NCBI GenBank assembly: GCA_964477525.1
Contig: CAYZHY010000014.1
Span: 9,501-41,500, forward strand
Direction: 5' to 3'
DNA from: an uncultured Geitlerinema sp.
GTDB taxonomy: Bacteria; Cyanobacteriota; Cyanobacteriia; Cyanobacteriales; PCC-9228
DNA: 32,000 nucleotides
Part shown: piece after piece, positions 6,928 through 11,824 of the stretch
Layout: each line of letters begins with the position of its first letter
Position numbering within the stretch: position 1 is the first letter of the stretch
Translations under genes and position numbers: made by a program
Notes under the pieces: generated by a model
Seen by the model: only the letters and a program-made list of their open reading frames with translations
What the model was told of the DNA's origin: nothing
Databases searched by the model: none

Positions 6928-7221
6928 TCAATAGAGATGCTCTGGTTGCTGGTAATCTAAATAGGCATTTGCCGGTTCAAAATCGCTACAGTTAATCGCT
7001 TCTTCGGTAAAAGCATCCTTAGGGCGTACGGTGCATTTGAGTCGATAGTCTCCCGTACAAAAAGCACAGCGATCGCAAGGGATTTGATGTACGCGCTGTA
7101 TCTGGGCAATGCCTTTTTTGAGATTGCGCCAGAAAGCAGATAGCAGCAAACCTACAAACAACCAAGCAAACAAACTACGAAAAAGGACAAATAGATCGAA
7201 GCTCGTGTCAGCCATTACCAT
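6928..7221 (-). CDS. small membrane-anchored Cys-rich protein (hypothetical)
   Basis: Start trimmed to the ATG at 7221, which is preceded by GGGAG; an alternative ATG lies at 7215. One hydrophobic helix (LFVLFRSLFAWLFVGLLLSAFW), then CDRCAFCTGDYRLKCTVRP...INCSDF. Same strand as the IsiA-like genes and 124 nt downstream of them. Confidence 0.55.
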   Translation of the reverse strand: MVMADTSFDLFVLFRSLFAWLFVGLLLSAFWRNLKKGIAQIQRVHQIPCDRCAFCTGDYRLKCTVRPKDAFTEEAINCSDFEPANAYLDYQQPEHLY

Positions 7222-7345: not shown

Positions 7346-8422
7346 CTACCGAGAAGTGCCCACGGCTTCTTGGGAAGGAGAAGAAGCCACCACTTCCGAG
7401 GAGCGACCTTCCCAAAGTTGGGCAATCTTGCTGAAATCAACCCCAGCAGCGCGCAAAGCATGCCAGAGGTGACCTTGCAGGAAGAAAAAGGCAAGGAAAA
7501 AGTGAGCGTTAGCCAGCCAAGCACGAGGTGTATACGTTCCTGGTTCCAACTGTGCCGTATCTGCAAAATACGGGACAAAACTAACCTGCAATTCCAACGT
7601 GGGACCGTAAAATTCTGTGGGATAAGCCAGGGTATTGAAAGCGCAGAAAGCAGTCGCAACGAATCCTGCCAAGGCAATACCGCCCAACGAGTAAGACAAA
7701 ATGGCTTCTCCCGAGAAATTCAGCAAGCGTTTTGCCCAAGCAAAAGGTTCCTGCACGATGTGCCAAATTCCGCCTGCCAACAGCAAAATGGCAACGTAGA
7801 TATGACCGCCGACCAAATCCTCTAGATTATCAATCCAGAGAAAATCGGTTTGATAGCTGTAAATCACCCAAGGATTGAGGGTAGGATTGGTCACCTGACG
7901 CACCTCACCCAAATTGGGGTCGTAGAGACCACCACCAGCAGTAGCGTGGAAAACAAAGAGCAATGCACCCAATCCCAGAAAAATCAAATGGATACCGAGA
8001 ATCGACCCCAGTTTTTTCGGGTCGTTCCACTCAAAATGGAATTTGGCAGCGCCACCGGAAGCCTGTTTCAAATCGCTGGGAACGCGAACTTGGTGGAAGA
8101 AAGCACCCAATCCCAACACGCCAGAAGAAATCAGATGGACTACGCCTACCACATAAAAGGGATAGGTATCGATCGCTTCTGGACCTTCTGTCATTCCCAA
8201 GCCTAAAGCCGCCAAATGGGGCAACAGAATCAACCCCTGTTCGTACATGGGGGCTGCTGGGTTATACTGGGAGAGTTCGAAGAGGGTAAACGCACCTGCC
8301 CAAAACACAATCAGGGCAGCGTGGGCAATGTGGGCGGTGAGAAACGTACCGGATAAATTAGCCAGCCGGGCGTTTCCCGCCCACCATCCATATCGGACTT
8401 GAGAGTTTCCGTAAGTTTGCAT
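7346..8422 (-). CDS. isiA: IsiA/CP43'-family chlorophyll-binding antenna protein (third gene of cluster)
   Basis: 358 aa. N-terminus [20 protein letters not shown]...[16 protein letters not shown] and six-helix CP43-like blocks without the large lumenal loop. GAGGAGG SD lies 5 nt upstream of the ATG. Confidence 0.88.
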
Positions 8423-8442
8423 AAATGCCTCCTCAATGCAAG

Positions 8443-9843
8443 TTAGTTAATCGTGCCGCGAAAGATAGCGTCGATGGTTTCAAAGTTTTGCAAGAGAAAG
8501 TAAGCGACCCAAGCGCCGCCAACGCCACCAATCAGGAAGCTAGCGCGAAATTGGTTCCAATCTTGTTGGTTTTGCAGCCAGTAGAAGATGGTGCCTTCCC
8601 GGCAAGCAGCGAGAACGACGGTTACGATGGCGATAATGGCTACAGCCGCTAGCAAAGCCGTTTGGCGCGCCCAACTGGGTTCGGAAAGCGGACTGAGGGT
8701 GACAAACGGACCCACCAGGAAATAACCGTGGGCCATACCAATTTCCAGTCCGCGCCACATAGGCGATAAACCGCGACGGTAAACGGGCAAATTGGCCAAA
8801 AATATCAGCGTTGCTTCGCCGGAACCAGTAGCATTGGAAGCAAAGACACCGCGACGCATATCAAAGCCACCAGTACGCGATCGCACTCTGACCGCATGCC
8901 AGATGTGCCCCACCAACAGCAGCGCTGCCAAAACCACATGGGTAGTTGCCAGCCAAGTACGGGGCGTGACCGCACCATTGGCGGTTTCCGACCAACCCAA
9001 AGGTCCGTAAAACTCTACTGGATAAGCCAAATCATTGGTGGTGACAAAATAAGCCGCCAAAAATCCAGCATAGGCCAAAGCCCCCAGGCTGTAGGACAAA
9101 TAAGCTTCGCCGGACCAATACAGCACATCTCGCGCCCACTTGTAAGGCTTCGAGACCACGTGCCAAATGCCACCGACGACACACAAAAGTCCGACCCAGA
9201 TATGGCCGCCAACCAGATCTTCCAAGTTATCCACGGCAGCCATCCCTTCTGGACCTTGCACTCCTACCAGATAGCCGAAAATGCGGATGGGATTTAACGT
9301 CGGGTCGCTGACAGCGCGAACGGACTGGATATTGGCATCGTACAAACCACCAGCGTAGGTTGCCTTAAACGCCAGCAGCAACGCTCCCAGTCCCAGTAAA
9401 ATCAAGTGAATGCCCAAAATGGAGGTCATTTTGTCTTGGTCTTGCCAGTCGTAACCGAAAAAGCCAGGAATCGACTTCTCTTGCGGCAAAACCTCCGGAC
9501 CTAACAGAGCGTGGTAAACACCACCAGCTGCCAAAACGGCGGAACTCACCAAATGTAGGACCCCCACAACCAAATAGGGATAGGTATCCACAATTTGTCC
9601 GCCATCAGCAACGCCCCATCCCAACGTTGCCAAATGCGGCAGCAGAATCAGTCCTTGTTCGTATAAAGGTTCGCCGGGATGGTAACGAGAAAGTTCGAAG
9701 AGGGTAAACGCGCCTGCCCAGAAAACGATTAAGGCTGCTTGCGCCACGTGCGCTCCCAGCAATCTTCCGGAAAGGTTCGTCAAACGCGCATTGCCTGCCC
9801 ACCAACCGTAGGCTCGTTCTGGAACCGTGGTTGTTGCCGTCAT
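8443..9843 (-). CDS. CP43'/IsiA-family chlorophyll-binding protein with C-terminal PsaL-like domain
   Basis: Start trimmed to [21 protein letters not shown] (ATG 9843-9841), which overlaps the upstream gene's TGA as ATGA. The last ~132 aa (nt 8446-8841) match PsaL blocks: [30 protein letters not shown] and [25 protein letters not shown]. Confidence 0.88.
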
Positions 9844-10829
9844 AGCTTCGTGCCTCCTAATGCCTGCATGCGAGCGCGAATGGCGTGCCAAATATGGCCG
9901 GCTAAGAAAACAGCCGCCAAAGCTATATGGGCTGTCGCCAGCCAAGTGCGTGCGGTTACCGTACCGGATGCCTCTTGCAAGCCGACGGGGCCGTAAAAGA
10001 CTTCTGGATAGGCAAAGTCGTTGACAGTAACGAAATAAGCTGCCAAAACACCCATATAAGCCAAAGCGCCCAAACTATAGGAAAGATACGCTTCCCCGGA
10101 CCACACGAACAGACGTTTGGCCCAACCAAAGGGTTTGCTGGCGATATGCCATAAGCCGCCAACAACGCAGAGAAAGCCGATCCAAGCGTGACCGCCAACG
10201 AGGTCTTCTAGGTTGTGGACCGCTGCCATACCGGCGGTGCCTTGACTGCCCACCAGATAGCCGAAAATCCGAGCTGGGTTGAAGGTGGGTTGGGTGACCA
10301 CCCGTACTGCTTCTGCATTGGGGTCGTACAAACCGCCCCAAAACATGGCTTTGGTGACCAGCAACCAAGCACCCAGTCCCAGCAAAACTAGGTGAATGCC
10401 CAGAATGGTGGTCATTTTGTTGGTATCCTGCCAGCTGTAGCCGAAAAAGCCAGCAAAGGTATCGTCTCGCGACAGTACCCGCGGACCGAAAACGGCGTGG
10501 TAAATGCCACCAGCGCCCAAGACGGCAGAACCAACTAGATGCAAAATGCCAATGACGAAGAAGGGATAGGTATCTGCAATTTCTCCGCCGTCAGCAACAC
10601 CCAATCCTAGGGTGGCTAGATGCGGCAGCAGAATCAATCCTTGTTCGTACATGGGTTGTGCTGGGTTGTATTGGGCGAGTTCGAAGAGGGTAAAGGAACC
10701 TGCCCAAAAGGTGATTAAACCGCTGTGTGCGACGTGCGCGCCCAACAGTTTGCCCGATAAATCTGTAAAGCGAGCGTTCCCTGCCCACCAACCGTAGTTG
10801 GATTGCGAAGGTAACGTGGTTGTACTCAT
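9840..10829 (-). CDS. CP43'/IsiA-family chlorophyll-binding protein (first gene of cluster)
   Basis: Start trimmed to [21 protein letters not shown] (ATG 10829-10827), preceded by GAGGAGG. 329 aa. Closest by eye to the N-terminal part of the fusion gene ([31 protein letters not shown]). Confidence 0.88.
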
Positions 10830-10857
10830 GGATGAGGACCTCCTCAACGGTGGCTCA

Positions 10858-10880
10858 TTGTTGAAAAAAATATTCAACAA
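10858..10880. promoter_or_regulatory. perfect palindrome TTGTTGAA-N7-TTCAACAA in the leader of the IsiA-like operon
   Basis: Read directly. 8-bp arms with a 7-nt A/T spacer, 29-51 nt upstream of the first ATG. Could be an operator or a 5'-UTR hairpin. Confidence 0.3.
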
Positions 10881-10928
10881 CCTTGGGTATCCATTCAAAC
10901 TTTATTGGCAAAAATTTGCAAGTGGTTT

Positions 10929-10946
10929 TGAGTAAAGTTTTGTAAA
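10929..10946 (-). promoter_or_regulatory. HLR1-like direct repeat (candidate RpaB-type site)
   Basis: The minus strand reads TTTACAAA-AC-TTTACTCA. The HLR1 pattern is (G/T)TTACA(T/A)(T/A)-N2-(G/T)TTACA(T/A)(T/A); the first half matches 8/8 and the second 6/8. About 100-117 nt upstream of the operon ATG. Confidence 0.3.
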
Positions 10947-11117: not shown

Positions 11118-11168
11118 CTCCTCCCACTCCTCCCACTCCTCCCACTCCTCCCACTCCTCCCACTCCTC
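11118..11168. repeat. 9-nt tandem repeat CTCCTCCCA (minus strand TGGGAGGAG), about 5.7 copies
   Basis: Read directly: five perfect units at 11118-11162 plus a partial unit. Begins 5 nt downstream of the Crp-family stop codon (11174-11176). Confidence 0.92.
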
Positions 11169-11173
11169 GTTTT

Positions 11174-11824
11174 CTAGGATTCGGCAATGCTAGGAAAATG
11201 CTTTTTGACAATCATACGCCGCTGCTGGTCAAAACTGAGAATGCCTTGGTCTTGGAATTTGCCCATCAGGCGAGTGATGGTAACGCGGCTGGTACTGATG
11301 GCGTTGGCGAGTTCTTGGTGGGTGAGGCGAATGCCAATTCGGATGCCTTGGGGGGTGGTTTCTCCCATTTCCTGTTGCAGCCATTGCAGCAGTTGTTGCA
11401 AACGTGTTTCAACACGACGTTGCCCCGCGATCGCTAACAATGCCTCGACTTGCTGCAGTCGCCGGTTGATTTGCGGCAGGAGTTGCTGCGCTAGAGTCGG
11501 TGAAGATTCGATGTCGGTCATGGAATACCAAGTTAAATAGACATCTGACTGAGCTTTGACTTGATAGGTGGGTAAGGAGGTCAACCAAGATCCAAAACAC
11601 AAATTAGGACCAACCCAACCAACCAAGCCTTCGTTTCCATTTAAATAAAATGTACTTACCTGCACGTATCCCTCACAAACCTGCCAGATGCCGCAATGCT
11701 TGCTGGTGATGGGTTGCCCCTTGCGATAAAAAAAACAGCGGGTTTTGGTCAAGCGATCGCGAAGCGTCGGGGAACGAGAGTCGCGGTGCTGGGTTGCTTG
11801 CCATAGCGATGTGGTGGCGCTCAT
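11174..11824 (-). CDS. Crp/Fnr-family transcriptional regulator
   Basis: 216 aa. N-terminal beta-roll effector-like region and C-terminal HTH LTHQELANAISTSRVTITRLMGKFQDQGIL. GAGGAG lies 10 nt upstream of the ATG. Confidence 0.82.
   Translation of the reverse strand: MSATTSLWQATQHRDSRSPTLRDRLTKTRCFFYRKGQPITSKHCGIWQVCEGYVQVSTFYLNGNEGLVGWVGPNLCFGSWLTSLPTYQVKAQSDVYLTWYSMTDIESSPTLAQQLLPQINRRLQQVEALLAIAGQRRVETRLQQLLQWLQQEMGETTPQGIRIGIRLTHQELANAISTSRVTITRLMGKFQDQGILSFDQQRRMIVKKHFPSIAES

Follow-up and report, generated by a model that had tools for sequence, protein, structure and literature searches.

What kind of antenna is encoded when three genes of the CP43'/IsiA family follow one another on a single strand, and which photosystem would it serve? 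This question is raised by a 32,000-nucleotide stretch of DNA (the window) from an uncultured Geitlerinema sp. A preliminary description of the window, made from the letters alone, had placed three co-oriented CP43'/IsiA-family genes in it, and their coordinates agree with both the list of open reading frames (ORFs) and the minus-strand sequence. Gene 1 (9840-10829, minus strand, 329 residues from the ATG at 10829) encodes an IsiA-family chlorophyll protein without PsaL, gene 2 (8443-9843, minus strand, 466 residues) an IsiA-PsaL fusion of the CBPV or Anabaena IsiA2 type and gene 3 (7346-8422, minus strand, 358 residues) a canonical IsiA of the All4001/Synechocystis IsiA clade. We consider that the cluster probably encodes a stress-responsive antenna of photosystem I (PSI), with iron starvation as the most likely stress, of the kind already published for clusters in which several isiA genes include an IsiA-PsaL fusion.

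All three proteins were found to match PF00421 (E-values of 5e-72, 2e-79 and 9e-69 for genes 1, 2 and 3, respectively). They also pass the curated cut-off of 335 bits of TIGR03041, the NCBIfam 'chlorophyll a/b binding light-harvesting protein' family, with 401, 394 and 461 bits, and all fail the cut-off of 603 bits of the psbC equivalog, where the scores are 391, 399 and 345 bits. The PF00421 alignments of the three proteins cover profile positions of about 2-274 and then ~445-484 of 500. The skipped stretch (~275-445) corresponds to the large lumenal loop E of CP43, which is missing in all three genes, and their antenna parts are 329-358 residues long as against 484 residues for the CP43 of the same genome. 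Eleven histidine columns are shared with this CP43 in the alignment. All eleven of these CP43-type ligands are kept in genes 1 and 3 while ten are kept in gene 2 (H35Q). Genes 1 and 2 are 69% identical whereas gene 3 is 54% identical to gene 1 and 56% to gene 2; the closer kinship of genes 1 and 2, which the preliminary description had judged by eye, is therefore confirmed, and the motifs quoted for it occur in both. The assembly to which the window belongs (4.1 Mb, 99.9% complete) contains psbB, psbC and these three genes as its only family members. Free psaL and psaK are each present once, and neither an All4003-type nor an All4000-type gene was found anywhere in this genome.

Gene 2 joins an antenna domain (approximately residues 1-330, with PF00421 matched over residues 11-282) to a C-terminal PsaL domain (PF02605, E-value of 2e-35, residues 341-455, about 8479-8823) within a single ORF of 466 residues that has no internal stop. 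Its alignment with chain 1 of 7Y3F and with 9ZJT is full-length (608 bits, residues 4-454 against residues 3-472). In our trees gene 2 lies within the fusion clade (support 100/100), where it groups with the fusions of other Oscillatoriales (97/93), and these matches identify it as the predicted orthologue of All4002/IsiA2 of Anabaena sp. PCC 7120. The PsaL part of gene 2 shares 50% identity with the single free PsaL of the genome. We also noticed that codon 35 of gene 2 (9739-9741) encodes glutamine, giving AHVAQ instead of AHVAH at the second histidine of the first ligand pair. A histidine is present at this position in CP43, gene 1, gene 3 and Anabaena All4002.

Canonical IsiA is a classic protein of iron and oxidative stress. 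The preliminary description had assigned to gene 3 a canonical IsiA N-terminus and a short Ser-rich tail, and both features were recovered: the alignments with solved IsiA chains (472-508 bits) begin at residue 1 and the C-terminal tail consists of 20 Ser-rich residues. The best structure matches are 6K33, 6KIF and chain 4 of both 7Y3F and 9ZJT, at 497-508 bits, and the solved relatives comprise the IsiA proteins of Thermosynechococcus, Synechococcus and Synechocystis as well as All4001 of Anabaena. Gene 3 falls into the canonical IsiA clade (22 rows, support 99) and is the predicted orthologue of the IsiA belt subunit, All4001.

The identity of gene 1 is less obvious from its length and domains, and was approached through structure matches and trees. 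Its highest score is with the antenna part of the fusion chain (7Y3F chain 1, 520 bits), followed by the All4003 product (9ZJT chain 2, 414 bits), All4001 (345 bits) and All4000 (316 bits). The phylogenetic placement that the preliminary description had proposed as a check was carried out twice, with 110 rows by a quick method and with 49 rows by a careful one. The smaller set excluded five short proteins, which are maybe fragments of fusion genes, and locus L090, which has a very long branch. Both trees resolve four types, and the three genes were assigned to the fusion and canonical IsiA clades. Gene 1 is found inside the fusion clade, with support of 97 in the 110-row tree and 100/100 in the 49-row tree. 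In approximately unbiased (AU) tests, a tree with one all-fusion clade that excludes the PsaL-less forms was rejected (p 0.0015), this grouping having been named after the tree was seen. A single clade of gene 1 and 12 other PsaL-less Oscillatoriales rows was not rejected (p 0.51 and 0.11), and neither was gene 1 as the sister of the fusion gene of its own lineage (p 0.09). If the All4003-type rows are taken as the outgroup, the most economical interpretation is that a fusion gene was duplicated and that one copy then lost its PsaL domain to become the gene 1 type, and this may have happened once or repeatedly. We considered gene 1 as an All4003-type subunit (the 'IsiA1' of Anabaena in PMC13464640) by clade and rejected this assignment as it groups apart from the upstream genes of Nostoc, Microcoleus and Hormoscilla. 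Despite the different clade, it may function like an All4003-type subunit.

To place this gene among its relatives, 80 related loci (L011-L090) were collected in a scan for relatives of gene 2, with one genome per species, and all CP43-like ORFs in them were classified. The most frequent layout that we describe here, found in 31 of the 80 loci, is an All4003-type gene followed by the fusion, canonical IsiA and an All4000-type gene, and a further 13 loci have the same four genes with the IsiA pair divergent. The layout of the window, a gene 1-type gene followed by the fusion and IsiA, was observed among these loci only in L011, a metagenome-assembled genome (MAG), which also has the small gene that follows gene 3. 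Outside this set, a genome of the same genus (G301) carries the same three genes in the same order together with the small gene and the flanking genes. A PsaL-less gene at least 66% identical to gene 1 occurs in six of the 80 loci (L011, L012, L013, L015, L017 and L033), and in all of them except L011 it lies between an All4003-type gene and the fusion gene. A search of 5.8 billion proteins with a profile of the gene 1 clade returned only about a dozen clusters that outscore fusion proteins. Those with names belong to Geitlerinema sp. PCC 9228, Oscillatoria sp. SIO1A7, Oscillatoriales RM2_1_1 and Microcoleaceae MAGs, and their proteins bear generic names only. No named protein of Leptolyngbya JSC-1 or Trichodesmium was found above the fusion proteins in this search, and neither the search nor a look-up of the clusters mapped gene 1 onto IsiA2 or IsiA3 of those organisms. 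The gene 1 type thus appears to be rare, being found in this genus, one MAG and a few Oscillatoriales.

Other PsaL-less proteins were observed near the fusion proteins and outside the gene 1-type group, namely the P0115/P0064 and P0129 clusters (Scytonematopsis contorta; Richelia; Calothrix sp. NIES-3974). P0064 and P0115 are located inside the fusion clade in the trees and P0129 is close by rank. Several lineages may have lost PsaL or may have acquired such short forms independently.

The junctions between the genes are as the preliminary description had read them. The start codon of gene 2 (ATG, 9843-9841) and the stop codon of gene 1 (TGA, 9842-9840) share two nucleotides in an ATGA at 9843-9840, and genes 2 and 3 are separated by a spacer of 20 nucleotides (8423-8442, minus strand) in which the Shine-Dalgarno sequence GAGGAGG ahead of gene 3 can be read directly. 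A longer, TTG-initiated form of the gene 1 ORF reaches 10898. The gap between the upstream gene and the fusion gene was measurable in 27 of the related loci and shows mostly tight coupling of stop and start. For example, the junction is ATGA in L011, L013 and L015, the gap is 2 nucleotides in Nostocales and in most loci of the Microcoleus/Tychonema type it is 22 nucleotides with a Shine-Dalgarno site, while a wide gap of 94-298 nucleotides was found in four of the 27. From the spacing alone we infer that the three genes are co-transcribed.

A model for the complex can be drawn from the Anabaena system, in which all four isiA genes are expressed under iron deficiency and the fusion takes the place of PsaL in monomeric PSI (PMC9938196). 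In the 2.2-Å structure of the Anabaena PSI1-IsiA7 complex, four All4001 subunits are accompanied by single copies of All4002, All4003 and All4000, and the proposed order of assembly begins with the fusion and its partner (PMC13464640). In the Geitlerinema complex, the PsaL domain of gene 2 would likewise occupy the PsaL site of a PSI monomer, blocking oligomerisation of PSI, and gene 2 would anchor one six-helix chlorophyll antenna covalently at the PsaL pole. Along the PsaF/J/K side, copies of the gene 3 product would assemble into the homo-oligomeric stretch of the belt. Gene 1 is predicted to be translationally coupled to gene 2 by the ATGA overlap and would probably be made in about equal amounts. 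Because its own genome has no All4003-type or All4000-type gene, gene 1 probably fills the partner position beside the fusion subunit, which is the place of the All4003 product in Anabaena. The suggestion of the preliminary description that the locus encodes an accessory antenna of different subunits, and not the homomeric ring of IsiA, is supported, by homology, through this orthology with the solved Anabaena complex. The idea is not new: a mixed belt of IsiA subunits on monomeric PSI has been seen by cryo-EM in Anabaena, and clusters of several isiA genes with an IsiA-PsaL gene have been published for Anabaena, Nodularia, Leptolyngbya JSC-1 and Trichodesmium.

Several observations weigh against an iron-starvation antenna of this composition. 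About 110 nucleotides upstream of gene 1 were found to be conserved between the window, G301 and L011, whereas the sequence further upstream is not. This leader or promoter block (10830-10945, minus strand) includes a Shine-Dalgarno sequence, GAGGAGG, and a palindrome with 8-bp arms at 10858-10880. The palindrome is conserved in G301, and in L011 changes of G>A and C>T that match each other across the arms leave seven of the eight arm positions complementary. It may serve as an operator or form a hairpin in the 5' untranslated region. No other site in the leader comes closer to a Fur box, but the likeness is weak (12 of 19), and no strong Fur box is present there. The promoter and terminator scan found no sigma-70 consensus promoter or terminator that would delimit the transcript, the number of terminator-like matches (11 found against 8.6 expected) being at the level of shuffled sequence. 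Furthermore, the classic isiAB module is incomplete. The preliminary description had noticed that no isiB gene follows gene 3, and this holds for the whole of the 99.9%-complete genome, in which no stand-alone flavodoxin was found; the only PF00258 matches are two adjacent ORFs of 579 and 587 residues (C36:23828-26065), whose size fits flavodiiron proteins. Linkage of isiA to isiB is typical and not universal, being missing in Anabaena too. In Chroococcidiopsis, the abundance of the fusion Chro_2988 and its neighbour Chro_2989 is ~80-fold higher under white light than under far-red light, in an account that describes no iron stress (PMC8827656), and iron is therefore not necessarily the sole signal. 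As for composition, this genome has a single psaK, whereas the belt of Anabaena depends on a special isoform of PsaK. In five other loci an All4003-type gene is present alongside the gene 1 type and has not been replaced by it, and the place given to gene 1 within the complex is a guess.

Some of these observations would suit the same PSI antenna if it were constitutive, or controlled by light quality, redox state, sulfide or a cyclic nucleotide, as a standing antenna of a mat cyanobacterium. We consider this form of control unlikely. The cited cases in which iron was examined (Anabaena, JSC-1, Trichodesmium and Fischerella) all tie the cluster to iron limitation, and gene 3 is a canonical IsiA with the stress role described above. 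Such control could act, for example, through the Crp/Fnr-family regulator (11174-11824, minus strand, HTH_Crp_2 and Crp domains) that lies directly upstream of the antenna genes, co-oriented with them, and occupies the same position in G301. Its best NCBIfam match, PtrA, scores 164 bits and is below the cut-off of 300, and a close Crp-family homologue near the cluster was found in only one of the 80 loci (L017). It is not a conserved neighbour, and as a conserved regulator of the cluster it has no support outside this genus. It is kept here as a candidate regulator whose link to the cluster is weak. The response of the Chroococcidiopsis genes to light, the weak Fur-like site and the lack of flavodoxin all fit control by a signal other than iron, as does the biology of the congener Geitlerinema sp. 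PCC 9228, a model anoxygenic phototroph capable of PSI-only, sulfide-driven photosynthesis (PMC5061849). The genome paper of this congener makes no mention of psbC, CP43, PsaL, antenna or flavodoxin, and iron occurs in it only in the title of a reference.

An iron-starvation antenna built from all three proteins would have to be revised in another way if gene 1 were a redundant or decaying duplicate of the fusion gene with no role of its own, so that the working system would be just IsiA-PsaL and IsiA. The location of gene 1 inside the fusion clade and next to the fusion gene is compatible with this, as is a lineage-specific duplication, which the AU test allows. We regard such decay as very improbable in view of the conservation of the gene. 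Between the window and L011, the ratio of nonsynonymous to synonymous substitution (dN/dS) of gene 1 is 0.086 at a dS of about 1. Genes 2 and 3 have ratios of 0.101 and 0.093, the dS of the three lies at 1.0-1.4, and all three genes are under purifying selection. The ORF of gene 1 is intact and 96% identical in G301 and 86% in L011, all of its histidine ligands are kept, its ATGA coupling to the fusion is retained in L011 and is also seen at the gene 1-type junctions of L013 and L015, and the type persists in several Oscillatoriales. Pseudogenised copies in relatives, which the preliminary description had named as a result that would count against a joint function, were not observed, as no gene of the three is pseudogenised in G301 or L011. 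The least probable of the alternatives is that at least one of the proteins works for photosystem II, or acts mainly as free aggregates for quenching or chlorophyll storage (Pcb-like or IsiA-only rings), and not as a PSI antenna, for although IsiA-only aggregates with a photoprotective role have been described (PMC13464640) and gene 1 scores as high against CP43 (about 422 bits) as against the All4003 product, all three proteins lack loop E and fall below the psbC cut-off, gene 2 carries a PSI subunit and the solved orthologues bind PSI.

The small Cys-rich membrane protein that the preliminary description had seen after gene 3 is encoded by an ORF of 97 residues (6928-7221, minus strand) which begins after 124 nucleotides. 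It has one hydrophobic helix followed by conserved cysteines (CxxC...C...C) and was found to have no match in Pfam, NCBIfam or the PDB. Using tblastn, a homologue on the strand of the fusion gene was observed in 63 of the 80 loci, across several cyanobacterial orders, and it lies downstream of the fusion gene except in L079, a short contig where it is upstream. The synteny is identical in G301 and L011, and the dN/dS of the gene is 0.18. We considered the protein as a marker specific to the cluster and rejected it: one copy is syntenic with the cluster, but the family is multi-copy and widespread, being present in 103 of 301 cyanobacterial genomes sampled, with a second copy in this genome (G000:C77:11755-11961). 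The protein thus counts as a neighbour conserved downstream of IsiA-PsaL clusters and not as their marker.

Two further features of the locus were noted. Matches to the Rfam family IsrR (RF01419) were found antisense to all three genes, with 105-133 bits against a gathering score of 52. They lie on the plus strand at 10256-10433, 9270-9447 and 7852-8029, over homologous codons (about 132-191), and a promoter scan found no antisense promoter. The matches were rejected as evidence of an antisense RNA because the three paralogues match at the same codons, as conservation of the coding sequence by itself would give, and such conservation is their most likely source. In addition, a 9-nucleotide tandem repeat, (GGAGGAGTG)n, is located at 11118-11168 between the Crp-family gene and the antenna genes. 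The repeat is longer and more varied in G301 and missing from L011, which marks it as a rapidly evolving repeat rather than a conserved element.

A bolder proposal can be made for gene 1. Its type might represent an undescribed class of IsiA, a duplicate of the IsiA-PsaL gene that shed PsaL and replaced both the All4003-type and the All4000-type partners in this genus, leaving a minimal antenna of anchor, partner and belt in a flavodoxin-less, sulfide-tolerant mat host, possibly under control other than by iron and with the small Cys-rich protein assisting. We offer this composite as a tentative possibility and hold it to be rather doubtful as a whole.

The present locus adds little to the central idea, which is already backed by two cryo-EM structures, and its value is comparative. 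It suggests that an IsiA-PsaL system can be reduced to three genes, in a minimal layout of PsaL-less copy, fusion and IsiA, and it points to PsaL-less copies that arose inside the fusion clade. It also draws attention to an uncharacterised small Cys-rich membrane protein that accompanies the fusion gene across cyanobacterial orders.

Among known systems, the classic isiAB or PSI3-IsiA18 system (Synechocystis 6803, Synechococcus 7942 and Thermosynechococcus; 6NWA, 6KIF and 6K33) resembles the cluster in gene 3, a close homologue of its IsiA, but the classic system has a single isiA with isiB and forms a homomeric 18-mer ring around trimeric PSI without a fusion subunit. The CBPV class, represented by Nsp37500 of Nodularia spumigena and Chro_2988 of Chroococcidiopsis, has the same domain fusion as gene 2 and, as is proposed here for gene 2, would dock at the PsaL site and prevent PSI oligomers (PMC3610870, PMC8827656). 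Work of 2013 that is cited in PMC3610870 gave such PsbC-PsaL hybrids the name CBPV and modelled them into PSI. The Nodularia cluster includes isiB whereas the genome of the window has no stand-alone flavodoxin gene.

The isiA2-isiA3-isiA4(-cpcG2-isiA5) clusters of Leptolyngbya JSC-1 and Trichodesmium erythraeum IMS101 also have IsiA-like genes in tandem, among them a fusion with PsaL (Shen et al. 2016, cited in PMC12090762). The isiA2-isiA3-isiA4 genes are strongly up in low- versus high-iron Trichodesmium, and in JSC-1 they rise about 500-fold under iron limitation (PMC12090762). These strongly iron-regulated clusters are proposed to build antennae on monomeric PSI. In them the fusion is placed last and canonical isiA lies elsewhere with isiB, whereas in the window the fusion is in the middle and canonical isiA comes after it. 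The cpcG2/cpcL linker has no counterpart in the window cluster.

A close likeness is seen with the all4003-all4002-all4001-all4000 cluster of Anabaena sp. PCC 7120 (PDB 7Y3F and 9ZJT), where the fusion is likewise followed by canonical IsiA on the same strand and no isiB follows. The IsiA-PsaL fusion has been described as widespread, as has the absence of isiB from the Anabaena cluster been noted (PMC13637498). In the Nostocales relatives of the Anabaena cluster, as in the window, the upstream gene is tightly coupled to the fusion and a homologue of the small Cys-rich protein lies downstream. The two systems differ in that Anabaena has four genes and the window three, with no All4003-type or All4000-type gene in its genome. 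Upstream of its fusion gene the window has a PsaL-less gene of the fusion clade, a type that Anabaena lacks, and the single psaK and the glutamine at one histidine-ligand position of gene 2 are also unlike Anabaena. With three genes in a relative of the cultured Geitlerinema sp. PCC 9228, the system would be a simpler one than that of Anabaena in which to study the assembly of a heteromeric belt.

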